A DNA stretch of 25,697 bases from Nitrospinota bacterium (GTDB lineage: Bacteria > Nitrospinota > Nitrospinia > Nitrospinales > VA-1): assembly GCA_009873635.1 (NCBI GenBank), contig WAHY01000005.1, positions 97,564 to 123,260 of the forward strand, written 5' to 3'. This document shows, one piece after another, positions 1 to 25,620 of this stretch; position 1 is the stretch's first letter, and each line of letters starts with the position of its first letter. Both the position numbers and the translations under genes were made by a program. The notes below the pieces were generated by a model. It did not search any database. It worked only from the letters and a program-made list of their open reading frames with translations, and was not told the DNA's origin.

Positions 1-2737
1 GTTTCAAAGAACCTAGTTTTTTTGAAATCTCAGAGTTTAACCGAGTGACTTCTTTAAGATCCTGGTTGAGACGGTTGCCGATGTCTTCTCTTTGATTCCT
101 GGTGCTTCGCATGCTTCCCTGCCAACGAAATATTTCGGGGTATGTATTTTTAAATAGAACATTGAACTCATTCAAATCGTTTAGTTCGGCTAACTCGTTC
201 AGTGTTTCATACTTTTCCTTTATCATGGGCAGGCTTTCTTTGAATTTCTGAAACCCGCGTGTCCTGAGACTATCTTGTTCTGTAATAGATTGGGATAACT
301 GCTTGCGTGCATCATTGAGGGCTTTAAAGTTTTCGCCTAAATCTTCACTCAGGCTGGAATCGATAGTTTTTTGGCTCAAAGATTTTATCTTTTGCCTGAC
401 TTTTGTTTCTTCCTGCAAAAGCTCTCTCATTTTTATCATGGCTTTGTGTTCATCCAGGTATTTTGAATCTTTATCTAACAAATCCTGTATAGCGGCAACA
501 TCTTTAATCAGTTCATCAAAGAAACTTTTGATCGAAAATTCAAATTGCCTGGCTTGATCGGCACGTAGTTTTTGGTTTATTTCTGAGGTATTTTCGATAA
601 CTTGTTTTTGCTTTTTTTCCAATGACTCAAGTTTGGTTATAGATTCATCAATTTGCTCCATGACCTGGTTGTCTACTAATGAATCCATAGAGGAGCTAGC
701 CTGGTCTAACTGGTTTGAAAGTTCTCTCAGATCTTCAGCAACCTTTTTGAGTTGTTCCAGCGCTTCATCAATTTTTCCCTGATTAGCAAGGTCCTTGATT
801 TTTTCCAACGAAGCCATAGTATCTTCCAGGTTCATGCTCTTGTAGGATTTAGAGTTGAGAAACTCATCCGGTGTTGTCTGGTTCTGTCGGGAGAGTTTAT
901 CCATCATCTTCTGCAAGGTTTGCTGAATCTTGCTCAGCTTGGAATTGAGTTGATTGGAAGTGAGAGGTGATTTTTTATCACGAATATTTTCAAACTCTTC
1001 CCGCAGGGCTTCGGTTAATTGGGAAAGCTGGTCCTCAAGATCCATGACCTGTTCCATTTTCTGCCGGTTGGTCATTTTAATCAGATATAAAATATCCTGC
1101 TCCAGATGAGCGACCATTCTGTTATTAAGAACCGCAACTGAACCCGCATTGAAACCGGCAGGTGTTGGTTTTAAGATCGTGCCCTGTATTTTGTTAATGG
1201 TATTTATCTGATCTTCACGGATGGCTGTCAAACCTTTGATGATACTTGTTAAAAGCGTGAGGTAGGGGCGTGGGAAGTTGTCAAAGTCTTTAGCCTGGTC
1301 CCTTATACGCTGGGCAAGACCGATGATATCTATCAGTGCGTCTGAATGTGAAGAGAGAAGTTTTTTCCCAGAAAGCGGGTCGGTTGTCGTGGTTTTAAGA
1401 ATTTCTCCTTCAACAAGGCCGTTTGCCAGCAGGGCAATCATCTTTTCTGATAACTCTTCCTGGAGACGCACAAGGTTTTCCTGCTCTTTTCTACTATCAA
1501 AAATAACGAAACTATAAATTTCTGACTGGCCTGAGTTGGGACCGGTGACATTATCGTTATCTTTGACTTCCAGGAAGTATTGAACTTCATCACCAGGGTG
1601 CAAACTTTCCAGGGACAGGTTCCAGGAAAAGCTTCCCGTTGAATCCTTTTCCGGTTGTTTGAAGCGTTTAATGCTTTTCGTCAATGTGTCATTGTTGATT
1701 TGGGCGATCAGATCAATTTTGCTGATTCCAAAATCATCGTGGGATTCATAATACATCTGCACAGTGTCGGTTTCATAATAGACAGGTTTGGGGTTGGATG
1801 GAAACAGAATCACCTGGGGTGATTTATCCTGATCAAGCTCAATGGAATGTTTCTCTTTCAAAAGAACTTTTTCGCCATTGGGAGAAGTTATCCTGAATTG
1901 ATAATGTCCTTTTTCCCGCACCATGAAAGACCCTTTCAATTTTTTCAATTCCGTTACATCCATCAGAAAGTGGTCGCGGTTGTTCACTACTAATTCTGCT
2001 TCTTTTATTGGCAGGTTACTGTTACCGGTTATTTGTACTTCGGTGCCAGGGAGAGCTTTGAGTGGGCCTTTGGCCAAAATTTCTCTTTTCAGACTTGTGT
2101 ATGAAGGATATTCCAACTTTAGCATCAGGTCGCTTATATGATAATCGGTTTGTTGGTTTGTTAATTGCGGGGCTTTTTTATTTTCTTTCGGGGTAACCTG
2201 AGCCAACTTTTGCGGATCTGATAAAACCTTGAAGTCGGGCAATAATGCTGTGGCCAGGATTAAGGCAACAAGGGTAACCAGAAAAAGGTTGCGCGCTGGA
2301 ACAGCCCTTTGGCCACTGACTACTGATTCCGGGTCGATGTTCTGAATTTCAGATTGAGTGCGTTGGAGCTGCTCTCGAATGAAAGATAGAGAAAAGGTTT
2401 TATCTTGTGAGCTGGTCAAATGACGTTCCAATTGAACGGCATTGATCAGTGAATTATTCAATTCAGGATATTTTGCTTCAGTCAGGAGGGCGGCACGATC
2501 TTTGTCTATTCTGGATAGCCTGCAGGAAGAGTATAGTCCCAAGCCCAGTAATATTATGATTAGTCCGCACCAACCGTATTTCAAAAATGGGGATTGAAAA
2601 AAAGAAAATAGTCCGCTTATAAGAACATAACCGGCGATAATGGTAAATATGGAATAGGTGGCCTGAATGAATAGGACCCTGTTCCATTTAATCTTAACCC
2701 GGTTGAGAAAGTGGTGGATTTTTGAAGAGGTTTCCAT
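1..2737 (-). CDS. Large membrane-anchored coiled-coil protein, 3'-truncated by the window edge (>=912 aa in window). Architecture resembles the DUF4175 family (identification tentative).
   Basis: Manual translation of the minus strand from ATG (complement of 2735-2737) gives METSSKIHHFLNRVKIKWNRVLFIQATYSIFTIIAGYVLISGLFSFFQSPFLKYGWCGLIIILLGLGLYSS... This is two N-terminal hydrophobic helices followed by >800 aa of E/K/Q/L-rich, heptad-like sequence (e.g. ...LEKIKDLANQGKIDEALEQLKKVAEDLRELSNQLDQ...). I checked the frame at three points (around 2737-2460, 1202-1260 and 2-118) and found it consistent with no stop codon, so the ORF runs off position 1. It is absent from the ORF track because it is incomplete, and no competing long ORF exists on either strand. 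The family assignment is from memory of the architecture only. Confidence 0.6.
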   Translation of the reverse strand, partial: METSSKIHHFLNRVKIKWNRVLFIQATYSIFTIIAGYVLISGLFSFFQSPFLKYGWCGLIIILLGLGLYSSCRLSRIDKDRAALLTEAKYPELNNSLINAVQLERHLTSSQDKTFSLSFIREQLQRTQSEIQNIDPESVVSGQRAVPARNLFLVTLVALILATALLPDFKVLSDPQKLAQVTPKENKKAPQLTNQQTDYHISDLMLKLEYPSYTSLKREILAKGPLKALPGTEVQITGNSNLPIKEAELVVNNRDHFLMDVTELKKLKGSFMVREKGHYQFRITSPNGEKVLLKEKHSIELDQDKSPQVILFPSNPKPVYYETDTVQMYYESHDDFGISKIDLIAQINNDTLTKSIKRFKQPEKDSTGSFSWNLSLESLHPGDEVQYFLEVKDNDNVTGPNSGQSEIYSFVIFDSRKEQENLVRLQEELSEKMIALLANGLVEGEILKTTTTDPLSGKKLLSSHSDALIDIIGLAQRIRDQAKDFDNFPRPYLTLLTSIIKGLTAIREDQINTINKIQGTILKPTPAGFNAGSVAVLNNRMVAHLEQDILYLIKMTNRQKMEQVMDLEDQLSQLTEALREEFENIRDKKSPLTSNQLNSKLSKIQQTLQKMMDKLSRQNQTTPDEFLNSKSYKSMNLEDTMASLEKIKDLANQGKIDEALEQLKKVAEDLRELSNQLDQASSSMDSLVDNQVMEQIDESITKLESLEKKQKQVIENTSEINQKLRADQARQFEFSIKSFFDELIKDVAAIQDLLDKDSKYLDEHKAMIKMRELLQEETKVRQKIKSLSQKTIDSSLSEDLGENFKALNDARKQLSQSITEQDSLRTRGFQKFKESLPMIKEKYETLNELAELNDLNEFNVLFKNTYPEIFRWQGSMRSTRNQREDIGNRLNQDLKEVTRLNSEISKKLGSLK

Positions 2738-2841
2738 AAGCGCTGGTAATAATTCTTTGCTCTTCTAGTTTATTACAGCCCTGTTACGAATCCCAATGAA
2801 TAAAGTGGGCTGAAGTCAATGCGGCTTAAAACCGTATTTTA

Positions 2842-3591
2842 TCAGGCCCCTTTGTCTTTATTGCGCAGGGATTCAAACAGGTCAAACGGTATTGGGATAT
2901 AAGTATGCGTTCCCTCACCATTAGAAAGGTCAAGCAGTGTTTGAAAGAACCGAAGCTGTAGTGCCGGCGGATGGGTCCCGATAAGATCTGCGGCATCACA
3001 GGTTTTCTGTGCTGCTTCAAACTCACCCTGGGCATTGATGACTTTGGCCCTTCTTTCCCGCTCAGCTTCTGCCTGTTTTGCTAAGGCGCGTTGCATTTCC
3101 TGGGGCAGGTCTACATTTTTAACTTCTACATTGGCGACTTTAACTCCCCAGGGTTCAGTTTGTTCATCAATGACTTTTTGCAGGTGAATGTTGATCTCTT
3201 CGCGATTGGACAGCAGGTCGTCAAGAGTGCTTTGTCCTAAAATACTGCGCAAGGTTGTTTGAGAAAGTTGGGAAGTTGCATACAGGTAATCCTCCACCTC
3301 AATAATAGCTTTTTGGGCATCGACAACCCGAAAGTAAATTACAGCATTCACCTTTACGGTTACATTGTCTTTTGTGATGATATCTTGTGGTGGAACATCC
3401 ATCACCACGGTGCGGAGGCTGACTTTGACCATTTTCTGCACTCCGGGCACTACAATAATGATTCCAGGTCCTTTGACTTTCCAGAATCTTCCAAACAGGA
3501 AAATAACCCCCCTTTCATATTCACGCAAAATCTTGAACATGCTGAAAACCAGTAGGGCGAGTATTACTAACGGTGTCATTAGAAAGTCCAT
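2842..3591 (-). CDS. SPFH/band-7 domain protein, stomatin-like (QmcA/YbbK-type)
   Basis: The 249-aa ORF has an N-terminal TM helix and then [14 protein letters not shown]...[31 protein letters not shown]...[22 protein letters not shown]...[18 protein letters not shown]. This is collinear with E. coli QmcA and the stomatin core. The C-terminus carries an A/E/R-rich coiled region. Confidence 0.85.
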
Positions 3592-13368: not shown

Positions 13369-14100
13369 ATGGAAAGTCCGTTACATCATTTTGAAGTTCA
13401 TAACATTATTCCTATACATATAGGTGGGTTGGATCTATCTATCAGTAATGCTGTTGTGGCGATGTGGGTGGGTTTAGCTGTCATTGCCGGGAGTTTCATG
13501 CTGGTGGTGAATCGGGGAGTCTCTCCCATACCGGGTAAATTGCAGAGCATATTGGAAATTGCCCTTGAGTTTATAAGGGATCTGGTTTTTGAATTTATCG
13601 GTGAAGAAGAAGGCCGTAAATATGTCCCATTTATTGCCAGTTTGTTCCTGTTTATTCTGGCATGCAATCTGATCGGTCTCATTCCAGGTTCATACACCAT
13701 TACCAGTCAACTGGCTGTAACCGGGGCTTTTGCCATTGGTATTTTTATTCTTACCCTTATAATCGGGTTTAGTAAACACGGTGCGCATTTCCTGGGTATC
13801 CTTGTGCCGCCTGGGGTTCCTAAAATTATGGTGCCGTTAATGGTTCCTATCGAAATTATCAGTATGCTGGCAAGGCCTATTTCTCTGGCTGTGCGCTTAT
13901 TCGCCAATATGACAGCAGGGCACACTGTTCTTGCAGTTTTGTTTGGGTTAGCCATGACAGGGCCATTGTGGCTGGGCTGGTTGCCATTTGGATTCACAAT
14001 TATCATTAACGGCTTGGAAATCGCTATTGCGTTTATTCAGGCTTATATCTTCACAACGCTGACATGTGTATATATTGGCGATGTGATCAAGTTGCATTAA
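13369..14100 (+). CDS. atpB: F-type ATP synthase Fo subunit a
   Basis: The 243-aa polytopic membrane protein carries the subunit-a signature ISLAVRLFANMTAGH, which contains the essential Arg. Confidence 0.9.
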   Translation: MESPLHHFEVHNIIPIHIGGLDLSISNAVVAMWVGLAVIAGSFMLVVNRGVSPIPGKLQSILEIALEFIRDLVFEFIGEEEGRKYVPFIASLFLFILACNLIGLIPGSYTITSQLAVTGAFAIGIFILTLIIGFSKHGAHFLGILVPPGVPKIMVPLMVPIEIISMLARPISLAVRLFANMTAGHTVLAVLFGLAMTGPLWLGWLPFGFTIIINGLEIAIAFIQAYIFTTLTCVYIGDVIKLH

Positions 14101-14128
14101 TTTTTTGACAAATACTTAGGAGGAAAGA

Positions 14129-14350
14129 ATGGGTTCAGAAGCTGCTGCATTAATTGGAATGGGATTGTGTGCCGCCGGTTTTTTCGGAGCCGCTTTGGGG
14201 ATCGCGTATATATTTGCGAAAACCATTGAGACGGTTGGGCGTCAGCCTAACGCAGAGGCCCGGGTAGCAAAGTATTGCTGGATCGGTTTTGCGCTGGTAG
14301 AAGCGATCGCGCTGTACGCTCTGGTTATTGCCTTTATCATTATGCCGTAA
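14129..14350 (+). CDS. atpE: F-type ATP synthase Fo subunit c
   Basis: The 73-aa two-helix hairpin has a GRQP polar loop and the conserved carboxylate in ALVEAIALYALV. An aggagg SD lies upstream. Confidence 0.92.
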   Translation: MGSEAAALIGMGLCAAGFFGAALGIAYIFAKTIETVGRQPNAEARVAKYCWIGFALVEAIALYALVIAFIIMP

Positions 14351-14480
14351 AGGGGCTGAAAGCTTTCGCTGGTAAATGGCTTTTTGTGGGTAAGCATTCT
14401 CCCTTCTAGCCGTTGCTCTTTGGTCCCTCGCCAGGTGGCTGGGTACCACCCCCCTTGAATGGACGAATTTTTTTTAAGGA

Positions 14481-15008
14481 TTGGATATGCCTCAATTTGA
14501 ACAGGTGTCTGTTTTTGGCTCACTGATTTTCTGGTCGGTGATCTCTTTTGCTCTTTTATTTTTTCTTCTCAAAAGATTTGCGTTTCCTCCAATTCTGGAG
14601 GCGATTGAGATGCGGGAGAAAAAAATCCGCACTGATATTGAAGATTCAGAGAAACTGAAAGAAGAAGCGCAAAAAATAAAACAGGAGTTGGAGGAAACTC
14701 TAAAAGCCGCGCATGGCAAGGCCGAAACGATTGTGCAACTGGCCCATGATGAGGCCAAGAAGGCTCAGGAAAAAAGTCTTCAGGAAACCGAAGCTAAAGT
14801 CCGTCAGATTCAAAAAGACGCCGAGCAGGAAGTTCAAAGCTCACGCAATAAGCTTCTCCAGGAAATTCGCAGTTACACAGCTGCTTTGACAATTGCTTCT
14901 ACAGAGAAGTTTCTGAAAAAAGCTTTGAATGAAGACGATAAGAAAAGGCTTGTGGAAGAATCCATAGAACAGGTGGTTCAGGAGTTGGAAAAACGTCAGA
15001 GAAACTGA
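14481..15008 (+). CDS. atpF: F-type ATP synthase Fo subunit b
   Basis: The 175-aa ORF has one N-terminal TM helix followed by a long E/K/A/Q-rich helical region. It lies between atpE and atpH. Confidence 0.85.
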   Translation: MDMPQFEQVSVFGSLIFWSVISFALLFFLLKRFAFPPILEAIEMREKKIRTDIEDSEKLKEEAQKIKQELEETLKAAHGKAETIVQLAHDEAKKAQEKSLQETEAKVRQIQKDAEQEVQSSRNKLLQEIRSYTAALTIASTEKFLKKALNEDDKKRLVEESIEQVVQELEKRQRN

Positions 15009-15030
15009 CTTTGACAAATAAGGTAAAACG

Positions 15031-15582
15031 ATGCTTGAAAATCAGGTAGGAAAAAGATATGCCGAGGCCCTTTCCGGGAATATTTCCGATACAGGTACAT
15101 TGGAAAAGGCTCTCGAAAATTTGAGGTCTTTCAATGAGGCCATGTTTACGGAGCCTGAATTGGCCCGTTTTTTTGAGCATCCTTCCATTTCATCGGAAAA
15201 GAAACAAAATGTGGTTAAGGAGATTTGCGACCGCCTGGAGGTAGATGAAAAAGTAACAAACATGATGACTTTGCTCAATGAGCGGGGCAAGGTTTTGTTT
15301 CTGGGCAAGATTGTTGAGTACTTTGAACAAGTAGTAGACCGCCGTTTGAACCAGACACGTGTCCAGGTCACTTCGGCTCATCCTTTGACTACTGAAAACA
15401 TTGACCGGTTAAAAACCGCTCTCAATAAAATTTTAGGAAAAACTATTTTGATCGATACCGAGGTGGATGAGTCGCTGATAGGCGGCATCATGTTGCGCAT
15501 CGGCGACCAAGTGGCGGATGACACCATTCGTAACCGTTTGGAGATCTTAAAACGAACGATAGAAAAAGAGGAGGTAGCCTAA
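15031..15582 (+). CDS. atpH: F-type ATP synthase delta subunit (OSCP)
   Basis: The 183-aa ORF has OSCP-family size and position between atpF and atpA. Its C-terminal LIGGIMLRIGDQVADDTIRNRLE block is typical of the family. Confidence 0.85.
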   Translation: MLENQVGKRYAEALSGNISDTGTLEKALENLRSFNEAMFTEPELARFFEHPSISSEKKQNVVKEICDRLEVDEKVTNMMTLLNERGKVLFLGKIVEYFEQVVDRRLNQTRVQVTSAHPLTTENIDRLKTALNKILGKTILIDTEVDESLIGGIMLRIGDQVADDTIRNRLEILKRTIEKEEVA

Positions 15583-17091
15583 GTGAATTTACGAGCCGAT
15601 GAAATCAGTTCCTTGATTCAAAAGCAGATTGAAGGCTTTGAAGAAGGGATCGAGCTCAAGGAAACCGGACGGGTGATTTCTGTGGGCGACGGAATCGCGC
15701 GTATTTATGGTCTTGGAGAAGCCATGTCGGGTGAACTTCTGGAATTTCCCGGTGGTTTGGCGGGTATGGTCCTCAACCTTGAGGAAGACAATGTCGGAGC
15801 GGTTTTGCTCGGGCGTGATGAAGATATTAAGGAAGGAGATGAGGTAAAGCGAACCGGCCGTATCATGGAAGTTCCTATTGGCCCTGAGCTGGTTGGGCGG
15901 GTTGTGGATGGCTTGGGACAGCCTATTGACGGGAAAGGACCTGTTAAAACCGAAAAGTTTGGACCGATTGAAAGGGTTGCACCCGGTGTTATTGACAGGA
16001 AATCGGTTCATGAACCTATGCAAACAGGTATTAAAGCTATCGATGGCATGATTCCTGTTGGCAGGGGACAACGGGAATTGATCATTGGTGACCGCCAGAC
16101 AGGCAAAACCGCCGTTGCCATTGATACCATTATCAATCAAAAAGGTCAGAACATGTTCTGCATCTATGTGGCGGTGGGGCAGAAACGCTCTACGGTTGCA
16201 CGGGTGGTGAAATCATTGGAACAACATGGTGCGATGGAATATACCATTGTGGTTTCCGCATCAGCCAGTGACCCGGCTCCCATGCAGTTTATCGCTCCGT
16301 ATGCAGGATGTGCCATGGGTGAGTATTTCCGGGATAACGGGCAACACTGCCTGATTGTTTATGATGATCTTAGTAAGCAGGCAGCCGCTTACAGACAATT
16401 ATCGCTTTTATTAAGACGACCTCCGGGACGTGAAGCTTATCCCGGTGATGTATTCTTTCTGCACTCCAGATTGCTGGAGCGGTCCGCAAAAGTCAGTGAT
16501 GAACTGGGTGCCGGGTCCATGACCGCCTTGCCGATTATTGAGACTCAGGCGGGTGACGTATCTGCGTACATTCCGACCAACGTAATTTCCATTACAGATG
16601 GTCAGATTTTCCTGGAAACAGACCTATTTTATTCTGGCGTGCGTCCCGCTATCAACGTTGGTTTGTCAGTCTCTCGTGTTGGTGGCGCGGCACAAATCAA
16701 GGGAATGAAGCAGGTTGCAGGTCAGCTGCGTCTTGATCTTGCGCAGTACCGTGAAATGGCCGCCTTCGCACAGTTTGGAAGTGACTTGGATGCAGCGACA
16801 CAGGCACAACTTAACCGTGGTGAACGACTGGTGGAATTGCTCAAGCAGGATCAATATAAACCCTTGAGCGCAGTTCAACAGATCGTTTCCATATTCTCGG
16901 GTGTTCGTGGGCTGATCGATGATATTCCTGTCGCTGATGTCAAAAAGTTCGAAAATGGTCTTCTCAACTTTATGGAAGACAAGCATCAGGCGCTTTTGAA
17001 TAAAATTGAAGAAGCCAAGAAACTTGATGATGACTCAGAGGCACAGTTAAAAGCAGCTATTGAGGAATTCAAGGGACTTTTTAAAAGTTAA
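15583..17091 (+). CDS. atpA: F-type ATP synthase alpha subunit
   Basis: The 502-aa ORF has the Walker A motif GDRQTGKT. The GTG start at 15583 immediately abuts the atpH stop at 15580-15582. It is highly collinear with bacterial AtpA. Confidence 0.95.
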
Positions 17092-17094
17092 TCA

Positions 17095-19818
<2,724 letters not shown>

Positions 19819-19862
19819 TTCCTTACATTTTAGGCGTTTCCTAAAGTAGTTTACTTTCCGGC

Positions 19863-19940
19863 TTATAGCTTCTTAAAGATCAGAATACCTCATTAAAAAT
19901 CTTTATCTTTATGTATTTTATTTTAATAAAGTTTAGTTGG
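19863..19940. repeat. Copy A of a ~78-nt AT-rich imperfect direct repeat (partner at 24783-24861)
   Basis: Copy A reads ttatagcttcttaaagatcagaatacctcattaaaaatctttatctttatgtattttattttaataaagtttagttgg. Copy B reads ttatagtttcttaatgatcatcatatctcattaaaaaatctttatctgtatgtattttatttttataagattttaatgg. Identity is about 83% overall. The core ctcattaaaaa(a)tctttatct[t/g]tatgtattttatttt is about 38 nt with 1 mismatch and 1 indel. Copy A lies in the convergent gap between atpC and the KamA-like gene, and its last 8 nt overlap the 3' end of the KamA-like CDS. Confidence 0.8.
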
Positions 19941-22194
19941 GTGAATCAGGTTCTAAATTTGTGAACTTCGAAGTGGCTTTGAATTGATATTCAGGATATT
20001 CATATACTGGCATTCGAGGTTCTGTTCTCCCAATAGAATACCCCCAAATACTAGTGTATTCTGAGACATCTTCACCCATTTCTTCAAGATTCTTTAGGTA
20101 TTCACTAATAGATTTGGATTCAATGATAATCACTTTCCCCATTTTATTGATAATGGGGCTGTGTAGTCTATTTGCGTCATGCTCGAATTCCAAAATTCGC
20201 CGGCCATAACGCGTAATTCCAATGACTCTAAATGATAAGCTTTTTCCTATGCCTGGTAAATTGAGGATATTCCGGTCGGTAGATAGAAACGGCAAATTAG
20301 CCGAGCACCTTAACTTCTCTATATTCTTCACCATATTTTCAGCTTCAAGTGAAAATTGGTGGATTTTTGATTTAGTTTTTTCAGGGAGCAGACCAAAAAC
20401 CTTTTCTTCCATTTGTTCTTGAACAGCCCGCGCATTGGTGGCAAAGTTATGTTGGTTCTCCATATATCCTTTTGTGGAAAAAGTGTAGTATCCAAGCACT
20501 CCGATTTTATTCAAGATTTTTCTGAGTTTGGCAGTATGGCCTCTTCGTGAAGATGCCGTGGTCAATACATGTTGGTTGGTTAAAGTCCATCCCGCGGAAA
20601 TAAGTTTTCTGATTCCTTCCCGGGCTTCAGGGGTTACTTCCATCGGGCATTCAAAATGAGTTTGTACGAAGAATTGTGTGATACCGATTTTGGATGCCTT
20701 GGATTTGAATTCGGCCAGAATTTTGACAAGTTTATTGGTGATTCGTTGAGGAATATAGACCGGAAGGCGCGTTCCCAGCCTGACCCGAACGATCTCGGCA
20801 TATTTGTCGCCCTCATTCCTTGATTTATTTGCCTCTTTTTTCCGGGTGGCCATTTGATAAATAGCCTCCAATACCTCATGAAGAGACTTATCCGAACTCA
20901 TCAAGGCATCACCGCCGGTAATTAAAATATCCCGAAGCTGTGAATCGTTTTCAAAATAATCCATCAGACACTTCAGTTTTTCAGGCCAGGTTTTCTTAGG
21001 TTGAAGTTTATTCAAATCAAAATTAAGACGACCACTTTGAAAATCGTACATTCTTTGACAGGATTGGCATAAACCCCCACAGGCTCTGCCTACAGTATCC
21101 GGGATCAAAATAGCGACTTCGGGGTAACGCCTATGAACGTTGTTGTGTGTGGGCAATAACCAACCGGCCGCGTTAGGTTTTCCAGGTTCAACTTTGTCTT
21201 CTTTCTCCCAAGCCACGATATTGCCGAATTCTTCGACAAGTTGTTTGCTATAAATTACATAATCCCTAATGGCCAAATCCGCTCCAATGGCAAAGTATGG
21301 GGCCTTGATATGGAGTAAAGATAAGTAGTAAGGGTTTACAAAAAATGGTACCCCCGCGTTTTTTGCGCTTTTTAAAATTTGCATTGTGTCCGGGTCGAGC
21401 GAGTATCCAAGCATTTCATTCAACAGGCCGGGAGAACGTATGGCAAAGTTGAGATGAAAATGGCTGTCATTCCACCATTTCATTGCGGTTGAATATTTCT
21501 CTTCTGGTGACAGACCTGGTTCAAACTTGAAACTTCTACTGGAAATTTCGCCATTTTCCATTTTGGCAATTATAATTTTAAGTATTCGCTCCTTATTTTC
21601 TTCCCTCAATTGGACGATTCGAGAATCAAGGCCGGAAGGCCATCGATCCATCCACTTCTCAATCATGTTTCTGGTTGGAGGTTGATGAGCCATTTCTCCC
21701 CTCAGTTGCCTGAATAAATAAATCATGTCTTCAAAAAAATAAGGTTTAGCTCCTCCGATCCCATGTCTCGCTGCCAGCCAAACCATCTTGATGGGGTTAT
21801 TGATAGCAATTTCACCTCTTAAATTTAAGTCTTCAAATTCCCTTCCCGCGTTATTGATATAGTCCAGTAACCTTATTGATGCATAATCCGGCCATTTGAT
21901 AGACTCGAACGTTTTTCTATCAACATATTCCTTTTTATAAAAATCTAGTGCTTCAGGGTTTTCTTCAAGAACTCCCATGATCCAGTTTCTAACTTCCTCA
22001 AGCGCTTCAATTTCATTTTTTGTTTTTTTCATTATTTTATCTAAATCGGGATTTTCCTGAAGGAGTTGTTTGAGCAGGTTATGTGATTTGGGATCTATGG
22101 AGATTTTATCCAACTCTTGGTTGCTTGGAGAGATATCATCACATCTTTTCATAGAAATGGTGGTCGTTTGCAACATGGTTTTCCTCGTTTTCAT
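19933..22194 (-). CDS. KamA-family (lysine/amino-acid 2,3-aminomutase-like) radical-SAM protein, unusually large, with about 225 aa of extra N-terminal and about 130 aa of extra C-terminal sequence
   Basis: The 753-aa ORF has a central region that matches hallmark KamA blocks. VPFFVNPYYLSLL corresponds to ITPYYLSLI of clostridial LAM. HRRYPEVAILIPDTVGRACGGLCQSCQRM corresponds to [26 protein letters not shown] and contains the CX3CX2C motif. LRDILITGGDAL corresponds to VRDVLLSGGDAL. The N-terminal ~225 aa and C-terminal ~130 aa match nothing I recognise. The first ATG has no SD. The second Met (residue 7) is preceded by aggaaa, so the true start may be 22176. Confidence 0.8.
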   Translation of the reverse strand: MKTRKTMLQTTTISMKRCDDISPSNQELDKISIDPKSHNLLKQLLQENPDLDKIMKKTKNEIEALEEVRNWIMGVLEENPEALDFYKKEYVDRKTFESIKWPDYASIRLLDYINNAGREFEDLNLRGEIAINNPIKMVWLAARHGIGGAKPYFFEDMIYLFRQLRGEMAHQPPTRNMIEKWMDRWPSGLDSRIVQLREENKERILKIIIAKMENGEISSRSFKFEPGLSPEEKYSTAMKWWNDSHFHLNFAIRSPGLLNEMLGYSLDPDTMQILKSAKNAGVPFFVNPYYLSLLHIKAPYFAIGADLAIRDYVIYSKQLVEEFGNIVAWEKEDKVEPGKPNAAGWLLPTHNNVHRRYPEVAILIPDTVGRACGGLCQSCQRMYDFQSGRLNFDLNKLQPKKTWPEKLKCLMDYFENDSQLRDILITGGDALMSSDKSLHEVLEAIYQMATRKKEANKSRNEGDKYAEIVRVRLGTRLPVYIPQRITNKLVKILAEFKSKASKIGITQFFVQTHFECPMEVTPEAREGIRKLISAGWTLTNQHVLTTASSRRGHTAKLRKILNKIGVLGYYTFSTKGYMENQHNFATNARAVQEQMEEKVFGLLPEKTKSKIHQFSLEAENMVKNIEKLRCSANLPFLSTDRNILNLPGIGKSLSFRVIGITRYGRRILEFEHDANRLHSPIINKMGKVIIIESKSISEYLKNLEEMGEDVSEYTSIWGYSIGRTEPRMPVYEYPEYQFKATSKFTNLEPDSPN

Positions 22195-22503
22195 TTTTAC
22201 GAGGGAGCATGATAGAAAATACCCGCACCCAATTCATCAGGACTATAAAATCTAATAAATTTAAGTGATCAAGAAAAGCGGATATGTAAAACAGGCTTAT
22301 CTATAAGATTATAAAATTTTCATTTTATTCCCTCTCTATAGATAAATATGACCCTGCTTTTAATTCCAATAGAAAAATAATATTTTGAAATTACTCATCC
22401 TCAAAATAAATATTGGTTTGCAATTAATCTTTTAAAAGCTAAGGATAAAATATGAAGAAGGCCAAACCCCATACGGTGGAGGTATGGAGAAATAAACTTT
22501 AAA

Positions 22504-24464: not shown

Positions 24465-24718
24465 ATGAGTTTTCGATTAATAGGTAAAAATATTGAACTA
24501 ACAGATGGGATAAGAAACCACTTAATTAATAAAATAAGCAAAGTCATGAAAAATACGAAACCAGGTGCTAACTTGCGTTTATCCATTTGTCTACTGAAAA
24601 ATCGCCATATAGTCACGCTATTTTGAAGCAAAATAGAGTGACTATGTTTGCAGTAGATGAGGCTAAAGGCTTTTATACATCTGCGGATAATGTTCTAAAA
24701 AAATTTGAGAAAAATTAA
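24465..24718 (+). pseudogene. hpf: Short ribosome hibernation promoting factor (hpf/yfiA family), interrupted by a frameshift
   Basis: Frame A (24465-24626, stop TGA) encodes MSFRLIGKNIELTDGIRNHLINKISKVMKNTKPGAN..., which matches the HPF N-terminus (compare M.LNI.G.N.EIT.A.R..V..K..KLE). A frame shifted by one nucleotide (open 24572-24718) encodes ...IHLSTEKSPYSHAILKQNRVTMFAVDEAKGFYTSADNVLKKFEKN*, which matches the HPF/YfiA C-terminal half (..VVLKVEK.THTSDATLHV.GGEIHASAEG.DMYAAID.LIDKLARQ). The frames must switch between about 24560 and 24585. An SD agaggtg precedes the start. Confidence 0.7.
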
Positions 24719-24782
24719 AAAACACAAAGCACGTGCTCAAAATATCAAAAGACAATTGCCCAAAAAAATTCAACACTCCTCA

Positions 24783-24861
24783 TTATAGTTTCTTAATGAT
24801 CATCATATCTCATTAAAAAATCTTTATCTGTATGTATTTTATTTTTATAAGATTTTAATGG
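24783..24861. repeat. Copy B of the ~78-nt AT-rich imperfect direct repeat (partner at 19863-19940)
   Basis: See copy A for the alignment. Copy B lies about 65 nt downstream of the hpf-remnant stop, in the convergent gap before the 25159-25620 minus-strand gene. Confidence 0.8.
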
Positions 24862-25158: not shown

Positions 25159-25620
25159 TTATTTTGAATTAGGACAACAATCTTCTTGGCAATTAGGGTG
25201 TGGATGATTACCGTTTAGTTCTTTGCTACCATTTGATAAGGAAAAAAAAATAAAAAACAAGTTATAAAACATAATCATTATTGAAACAGCAGTAAGACCT
25301 GAAAATAAAATAAATAAAATTGTATCTCTATAACCCGCTAAAGAAGTACCCACCAAACCTAATAAACCTAAATTATGTAAATAGAAATGGAGTTTGACGC
25401 CATTTGGCCATGGTATTTGACGAGATGCAAAACGGGGAAGCACATGATATGAAACGCCTGCAATCATCATGACCATAAAGCCTAATAAGTTTATGTGTAT
25501 ATGAGCAAAACTAAATTGAGTTTTAATAACTGGGTTAAAACTTATCCCTACACCAAAAGAAACACCGATTATCAAATAAACGAGTGAAGTTTTAATAAAT
25601 AGTTTTGGGTATTGATCCAA
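25159..25620 (-). CDS. Small (153 aa) 4-TM membrane protein with a His/Cys-rich C-terminal tail and a possible heme-copper-oxidase-like helix motif
   Basis: A TTG start is preceded by an aaaggag SD at optimal spacing. There are four hydrophobic helices. The segment FAHIHINLLGFMVMMIAGVSYHVLPRF resembles helix VI of cbb3/NOR-type heme-copper oxidase subunit I (...[23 protein letters not shown]...). The C-terminal tail NGNHPHPNCQEDCCPNSK is rich in His and Cys. It lies in the AT-rich region. Confidence 0.55.
   Translation of the reverse strand: MDQYPKLFIKTSLVYLIIGVSFGVGISFNPVIKTQFSFAHIHINLLGFMVMMIAGVSYHVLPRFASRQIPWPNGVKLHFYLHNLGLLGLVGTSLAGYRDTILFILFSGLTAVSIMIMFYNLFFIFFSLSNGSKELNGNHPHPNCQEDCCPNSK

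Follow-up and report, generated by a model that had tools for sequence, protein, structure and literature searches.

A long-form KamA-family protein of a Nitrospinota bacterium as a candidate glutamate-type 2,3-aminomutase from a widespread clade of ~740-residue proteins

Among described KamA-family enzymes, those closest to the protein treated here are lysine 2,3-aminomutase (LAM) of Clostridium subterminale, the glutamate 2,3-aminomutase Eam of Clostridioides difficile (Ruzicka & Frey 2007) and a methanogen enzyme. The latter is named in the title of a paper as an N-terminally extended glutamate 2,3-aminomutase of Methanococcus maripaludis (Tunckanat et al. 2022, Biochemistry 61:1077), and the citing passage of a preprint has this archaeal enzyme making beta-glutamate as an osmolyte. 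Here we analysed a stretch of 25,697 nucleotides from a Nitrospinota bacterium (assembly GCA_009873635.1, contig WAHY01000005.1, positions 97,564 to 123,260 of the forward strand; hereafter the window), which contains a long-form KamA-family open reading frame (ORF) of 753 codons at 19933..22194 on the minus strand, stop codon included. From its sequence we predict that the product is a glutamate-type 2,3-aminomutase of a clade of ~740-residue proteins, converting L-glutamate to beta-glutamate (3-aminoglutarate), and we put the probability of this reading at about 0.55. The methanogen enzyme is reportedly MmarC7_1783 of M. maripaludis C7, a radical S-adenosylmethionine (SAM) aminomutase with an N-terminal extension of ~160 residues, whose function is said to have been predicted from the substrate-binding residues and confirmed by the detection of beta-glutamate after expression in a methanogen. 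Literature searches for MJ0634 and MmarC7_1783 gave no match.

The centre of the window protein is a KamA radical-SAM/pyridoxal phosphate (PLP) core of residues 240-672 (20179..21477; all features of the gene lie on the minus strand), delimited by profile and alignment comparison with LAM and with a family of ~600-residue proteins discussed below. The core qualifies as a LAM-like partial TIM barrel, and LAM was the sole match in searches of PDB sequences with the single sequence and with a profile, while a Pfam scan of the full protein gave no significant match. NCBIfam placed residues 240-598 in the KamA family, with a score of 155.4 bits (E = 1.8e-45) for TIGR00238, whose curated cut-off is 199.2; the shortfall is attributed to insertions. 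All motifs quoted in the initial annotation were found in place within the ORF, namely NPYYLSLL at residues 287-294, RYP at 356-358, CGGLCQSCQRM at 372-382 and ITGGDAL at 425-431. Its description of an oversized KamA-family protein with a genuine N-terminal extension was also borne out; residues 1-239 precede W240, the first LAM-alignable residue, which corresponds to LAM W17.

The residues that define the active site could be followed through the alignment with LAM, for which we used a reference sequence identical to PDB 2A5H. The [4Fe-4S] motif C372-x3-C376-x2-C379 (21058..21081, the interval including R381) corresponds to C125, C129 and C132 of LAM, and R381 corresponds to R134, which binds the alpha-carboxylate of the substrate. 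The glycine-rich SAM-binding motif ITGGDAL (20902..20922) aligns with SGGDAL of LAM, GGD at residues 427-429 matching the LAM SAM motif. The hhalign alignment ends at T574, equivalent to LAM C292, so the next residue, K575 (20470..20472), falls on LAM Asp293, a binder of the substrate side chain. A multi-enzyme alignment gave the same column, which is occupied by Asp in all four comparators (LAM and, from annotated records, E. coli EpmB, the arginine aminomutase BlsG and an AblA-like protein) and by Lys in the window protein and its relatives. Further downstream, the motif N645-L-P-G-I-G-K651 (20242..20262) resembles D330-APGGGG-K337 of LAM. On this motif-level comparison K651 is the predicted PLP Schiff-base lysine, the counterpart of LAM K337, which answers the check for a conserved PLP lysine proposed in the initial annotation. 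N645 probably corresponds to LAM Asp330; the assignment stays at that strength since the glycine loop is one residue shorter than in LAM and the AlphaFold2 confidence (predicted local distance difference test, pLDDT) is below 50 there. C372, C376, C379, R381, G427, G428, D429, K575, N645 and K651 were invariant in 85 of 85 homologues of the long family from about ten phyla.

In lysine-specific enzymes, the positions of Lys575 and Asn645 hold two aspartates, which points to an anionic rather than a cationic substrate side chain, and the retention of the alpha-carboxylate arginine R381 and the PLP lysine K651 points to a free amino acid rather than a peptide. The chemistry, that of a radical-SAM/PLP 2,3-aminomutase whose substrate is an amino acid with an anionic side chain, is therefore well supported. 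The earlier suggestion of a non-canonical amino acid or peptide substrate stands in its first part, as the substrate is probably not lysine, whereas R381 and K651 argue against its second. That the protein could be an ordinary LAM making beta-lysine is very improbable. The overall family is KamA and many homologues carry the Joint Genome Institute (JGI) label 'lysine 2,3-aminomutase', but the two acidic residues that bind the epsilon-ammonium group in LAM are invariantly replaced (D293 by K575, D330 by N645), and there is no neighbour resembling the acetyltransferase AblB or EpmA. The substrate-specific NCBIfam models agree in direction, the glutamate model TIGR04368 (Eam) scoring highest with 121.5 bits, followed by those for lysine (TIGR03820, 101), arginine (93) and EpmB (TIGR03821, 70). 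All of these scores are far under their cut-offs, which are 650, 525 and 369 for TIGR04368, TIGR03820 and TIGR03821, respectively, so that the window protein shares the KamA core and a best-scoring model with Eam and falls short of equivalog level. Eam itself has ~420 residues and lacks the ~190-residue helical extension seen here. The C. difficile enzyme reportedly has Lys and Asn at the positions of LAM D293 and D330; an annotated Eam was sought on plasmids as a comparator and none was found.

The proposed reaction follows by homology to LAM. The C372/C376/C379 [4Fe-4S] cluster would reductively cleave SAM held by the GGD motif, giving a 5'-deoxyadenosyl radical, while the alpha-amino group of the substrate would form an external aldimine with PLP freed from K651 and R381 would hold the alpha-carboxylate. 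Hydrogen abstraction at C3 and an azacyclopropylcarbinyl rearrangement would then transfer the amino group from C2 to C3. With L-glutamate as the substrate, this would constitute a one-enzyme route to beta-glutamate, a compatible solute.

For the parts of the protein outside the core, the initial annotation had recognised no similarity. In a search of 1.8 billion cluster representatives, the long clade was recovered as a few clusters at the 50% identity level (at least 47% identity to the window protein), followed by a gap in identity, after which the next full-length set in the 50%-cluster library consisted of proteins of 566-625 residues with 29-40% identity. Members of this ~600-residue family include proteins of Methanotorris igneus, Methanococcus vannielii and M. 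maripaludis (594 residues, P0461/WP_011868375), and further carriers belong to KSB1, Marinimicrobia, Fidelibacterota, Eremiobacterota, Bacteroidales and Ignavibacteriaceae. When profiles of the long clade and the ~600-residue family were compared with hhalign, the probability was 100% (E = 1.8e-69, 552 columns) and the match was co-linear from end to end, residues 38-719 of the window protein matching residues 7-593 of the M. maripaludis protein. By this match, neither the N-terminal extension nor the greater part of the C-terminal tail is orphan sequence.

The N-terminal extension is all-helical and covers residues ~26-239 (21478..22119), of which 38-239 are homologous to the N-terminal extension of the ~600-residue family, with the shared motif R[YW]PSGLD...R.EN..RIL. 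The view that the first ~225 residues are unrecognised thus holds for Pfam, where residues 1-239 have no match, but not for the comparison with this family. The first half of the domain is divergent between the two families, with an insertion in the window protein at ~85-135 and an invariant GxGGAKP loop at 145-151. The last ~130 residues had likewise been taken as extra, although about half of them, among these the PLP-lysine motif and the beta-hairpin after it, are core. In detail, 603-638 is an insertion, 639-672 is KamA core and includes K651, 673-719 is shared with the ~600-residue family (...GED.SEY.SIWGY, corresponding to the co-linear tail GED..(D/E)Y..IW.Y), and only 720-753 is specific to the long clade. 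The sequence past the LAM-like core is therefore confined to about 673-753 (19936..20178), where the AlphaFold2 confidence is low.

The two families also agree in the active site. Motif searches found N-x-P-x-x-G-K and CX3CX2C in 198 of 198 sequences of the ~600-residue family, and a Lys in the D293 column in 181 of the 198 sequences placeable in this way, with a spacing of 44 residues to the PLP lysine, which is exactly that of LAM. Both families lack the zinc cysteines, and both are encoded by stand-alone genes. The ~600-residue proteins have the glutamate model as their top substrate-specific match too, and unlike the window protein they exceed the TIGR00238 cut-off of 199 bits, with scores of 323-365, among them 347. 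The pairwise identity of the window protein to the 594-residue M. maripaludis protein is only 27%, below orthology-level similarity, and its length is outside the 590-660-residue class. It is ~150 residues longer in all, with six insertions specific to the long clade (at ~216-238, 323-350, 383-392, 445-461, 498-503 and 603-638) and a 30-residue tail (720-753). The search of cluster representatives also showed a fusion protein of 1357 residues (P0234), in which an N-extended KamA-type aminomutase is preceded by a DnaJ domain with a long linker and followed by a C-terminal peptidase M54 (archaemetzincin) domain, an arrangement that is odd for the family.

Compared with LAM, the window protein has ~235 additional N-terminal residues and a different C-terminal region in place of the zinc-binding domain. 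The observation in the initial annotation that a clostridial zinc-cysteine cluster is missing was correct: the column of C268 is occupied by Arg551, the segment with C375, C377 and C380 has no counterpart, and the sole Cys in the tail region of the window protein, C631, is not conserved. Since this inter-subunit zinc contact is missing while the N-terminal domain and the C-terminal tail are conserved together with the core across two families, we infer that the helical domain and the tail probably replace the zinc-mediated subunit contact, in a role in assembly or regulation.

The N-terminal extension had also been suggested to be a carrier or recognition domain. The all-helical domain had no structural match, and no sign of a carrier fold or of a recognition fold for ribosomally synthesised and post-translationally modified peptides (RiPPs) was seen. 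The corresponding explanation, in which the enzyme modifies a residue of a macromolecule or peptide, such as a terminal Glu of a protein or RiPP, could draw on the size and strong conservation of an accessory domain of unknown fold, and on a degree of cross-phylum conservation typical of enzymes that touch conserved macromolecules. It is nevertheless improbable, as PLP requires a free alpha-amine and the alpha-carboxylate arginine and PLP lysine are both kept, and as the homologous extension is found in the ~600-residue family, whose M. maripaludis representative reportedly makes free beta-glutamate. In addition, no conserved precursor-peptide gene, ligase or other partner was present in 84 loci with the long KamA gene, where clustering of ORFs revealed no neighbour family shared beyond lineage-level synteny. 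Apparent neighbour clusters in these loci turned out to be antisense ORFs within the KamA gene itself. No conserved neighbours were found at the loci of the ~600-residue family either.

The long form is common. The best 120 homologues in a database search were 66-95% identical to the window protein and nearly all of 726-765 residues, the exceptions being three truncated entries of 614-708 residues, and their names were generic, either 'KamA family protein' or the automatic JGI label mentioned above. The single-ORF arrangement recurs, at 63-95% identity, in at least 576 GTDB species of about ten phyla. A scan of one genome per species provided the 80 loci that we kept, whose proteins align almost in their entirety with 62-78% identity; they represent Nitrospinota, Bacteroidota, Ignavibacteria/Kapaibacteria/Chlorobiota, Gemmatimonadota, Acidobacteriota, Planctomycetota, Myxococcota, Calditrichota and others. 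The closest homologues among the matches listed are from Nitrospinaceae. Cultured carriers are Perlabentimonas gracilis, Saccharicrinis and Carboxylicivirga, and Parabacteroides distasonis encodes a protein of 704 residues (WP_009275016) that is 56% identical over residues 173-748. In an alignment of 46 sequences the mean column identity was 75% over the whole length, the N-terminal region included. This conservation, together with the recurrence of the single ORF in at least 120 homologues and in at least 576 GTDB species, refutes the idea raised in the initial annotation that the N-terminal region might be a separate upstream gene fused by a sequencing frameshift. A frameshift-fused gene pair or a decaying pseudogene has nothing but the unusual length in its favour, and we consider such an artefact practically negligible.

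The gap in identity to the ~600-residue family sets the long KamA homologues apart as a clade, and the architecture is common rather than rare. A common subfamily would have made the protein an ordinary one had its function been established, but the ~740-residue clade is not functionally characterised, and a literature search found no paper on this architecture. The best reading of its position is that of a deep and widespread clade, an elaborated sister of the N-extended ~600-residue glutamate 2,3-aminomutase family. Its extensions are only partly novel, the N-terminal one and most of the tail being shared with the methanogen-type family.

More than one copy of the gene was present in some genomes. 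One Bacteroidales genome has two long KamA genes in tandem (L010, 7989-10178 and 10373-12556) with a mutual identity of 60%, and one metagenome-assembled genome (MAG) has two copies on separate contigs (L054 and L067) that are 68% identical. The paralogy is within the clade, and the catalytic residues are kept in every one of these copies.

The choice of glutamate as the substrate follows from the Lys/Asn signature combined with a homology to the methanogen-type enzyme that is remote (27%) yet extends from end to end. That the gene stands alone in the 84 loci fits a one-step conversion of glutamate into a terminal solute, while giving no positive evidence for such a conversion. The main competitor keeps the chemistry and changes the substrate, making the long clade a functionally distinct paralogue of the ~600-residue glutamate 2,3-aminomutase family that would act, for example, on 2-aminoadipate, on a gamma-glutamyl compound whose alpha-amino acid head is free (such as glutathione or a gamma-Glu-X), on a phospho-amino acid or on D-glutamate. 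The low identity to the M. maripaludis-type family (27-36%), the position of the six clade-specific insertions close to active-site strands and the motif beside K575, which is KGYMEN in the long clade and KGK(K/E)ET in the ~600-residue family, all favour a changed substrate, as do the co-existence of both families in the same phyla and the paralogues within single genomes. The very strong conservation, which extends to non-saline organisms, points in the same direction, to a housekeeping rather than an osmolyte role. Yet the glutamate-type family has the very same residues at all four positions K575, N645, R381 and K651, no conserved ligase, transferase or transporter is encoded nearby that could consume an unusual product, and glutamate is the simplest substrate that fits the pocket, so that we consider a different anionic substrate less likely than glutamate.

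Several observations weigh against glutamate as the substrate and beta-glutamate as the product. The identity to the M. maripaludis protein is low, as given above, and among the ~150 extra residues are insertions directly behind the cluster motif and in the K575-K651 interval, which may have altered the pocket. The two families occur in the same phyla (for example Bacteroidales and Ignavibacteria), where they could have different roles. The equivalence of N645 with D330 needs a shift of one residue in the glycine loop, in the segment of pLDDT below 50, and the scores of the window protein are under the curated cut-offs (155 against 199 bits for TIGR00238, 121 against 650 for TIGR04368). For an osmolyte enzyme, an identity of 63-70% across phyla and an occurrence in the non-saline gut bacterium P. 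distasonis are odd. The 594-residue sequence is presumably MmarC7_1783, an indirect identification through its length, which fits the sum of a ~430-residue lysine 2,3-aminomutase and an extension of ~160 residues. We are not aware of any report of beta-glutamate from Nitrospinota or Bacteroidota. Finally, according to an older review, labelling studied by nuclear magnetic resonance had 'ruled out' that methanogens make beta-glutamate by way of an aminomutase, which the title of the 2022 paper contradicts.

A further proposal can be made only tentatively. The ~740-residue clade may be a functionally distinct, near-universally conserved enzyme of the Fibrobacterota-Chlorobiota-Bacteroidota (FCB) group, Nitrospinota, Gemmatimonadota and others, acting on another anionic amino acid or on a gamma-glutamyl metabolite, or else the N-terminal domain with its GxGGAKP loop may be a ligand- or ion-sensing module that gates the synthesis of a beta-amino acid.

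If the long clade does make beta-glutamate, a single stand-alone gene would predict this compound in hundreds of bacterial species, among them marine nitrite oxidisers (Nitrospinota), Marinilabiliales, Ignavibacteria, Gemmatimonadota and the gut commensal P. distasonis, and a widespread mis-annotation as 'lysine 2,3-aminomutase' would be corrected. We know of no study that has looked for beta-glutamate in any of these five groups. Culturable carriers such as P. distasonis, Perlabentimonas gracilis and Saccharicrinis could be used for testing. If the substrate is not glutamate, a large and strongly conserved enzyme family would have a new chemistry to be assigned. In either case, the conserved N-terminal extension shared by the long clade and the methanogen enzyme is a point of interest.

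The translation start of the window gene is more likely at Met7 than at the first codon of the ORF, since a GAGGA sequence (22186-22182) is located 5 nt upstream of its ATG (22176-22174; the whole signal spanning 22174..22186) and since the 95%-identical homologue (P0001, 747 residues) begins at the same place with MLQTTT. The predicted product would then have 747 residues. The intergenic spacer upstream of the gene, between it and an exchanger gene, is 309 nt long (22195..22503) and unusually AT-rich with a G+C content of 29%; it contains one weak promoter-like site only (22404-22377). Rfam gave no match to this spacer at E <= 1 and none at gathering thresholds to the regions upstream of the gene at 16 homologous loci, and no known RNA element was thus identified in either.

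The window is ordinary chromosomal DNA, with metG, holB, a gene for a PSP1-domain protein and the ATP synthase operon atpB...atpC in this order. The KamA gene is convergent with atpC, from which it is separated by 114 nt occupied by a repeat element. On the same strand, upstream of the KamA gene beyond the 309-nt spacer, is a gene for a Na+/H+ exchanger; next come a gene for a CBS-domain protein and a disrupted hpf-like gene. A link with Na+/H+ antiporters was considered and rejected: such genes adjoin the KamA gene in the window, at L006 and in P. distasonis, but their families and arrangements differ, and the other loci have no such gene.

An F-type ATP synthase operon is found no more than 8 kb from the long KamA gene in the window (13369-19818), at the locus of its close relative (L091) and at three loci of other lineages, L018, L028 and L045, of which two belong to Chlorobiota MAGs and one to an unclassified MAG. 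The operon varies in orientation between these loci. The numbers are small but suggest a proximity beyond that expected by chance. At L091, which is the locus of the 95%-identical homologue, an additional ORF of 195 residues without a family match is located between the KamA gene and atpC (2673-3260).

The repeat element belongs to an imperfect direct repeat of ~95 nt with two copies in the window, at 19840-19934 and 24760-24855, the final 40 nt being 90% identical. Each copy is located just 3' of a plus-strand gene, one after atpC and the other after the hpf-like remnant. The initial annotation had described the KamA gene as flanked by these repeats in a stretch of lower G+C content. The repeat does exist, but it brackets 4.9 kb that also contain three other genes, for the exchanger, the CBS-domain protein and the hpf-like remnant, and the difference in composition is marginal (40.4% for the gene against 42.9% for the window and 41.7% for atpC, with genes in the window spanning 31%-51%). 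No folding signal was detected in the repeat, and the locus of the 95%-identical relative, which retains the arrangement of KamA and atpC, lacks the element. Since, in addition, the G+C content is barely below the window mean, the repeat is not read as an insertion scar. A mobile islet defined by the repeats was rejected on the same grounds, the nearest homologues listed being all from Nitrospinota, and a recent insertion is not supported.

The hpf-like remnant consists of overlapping plus-strand ORFs (24465-24626, 24587-24718 and 24705-24788, within 24465-24790) that resemble a frameshifted S30AE/HPF gene; its N-terminal piece has a weak match to PF02482 (E = 0.008), and it is either a pseudogene or the product of a sequencing error. 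On the minus strand at 25159-25620, a 153-residue membrane ORF has similarity only to part of haem-copper oxidase subunit I (PF00115 positions 314-396, under the cut-off) and ends in a Cys/His-rich C-terminal tail, HPHPNCQEDCCPNSK.

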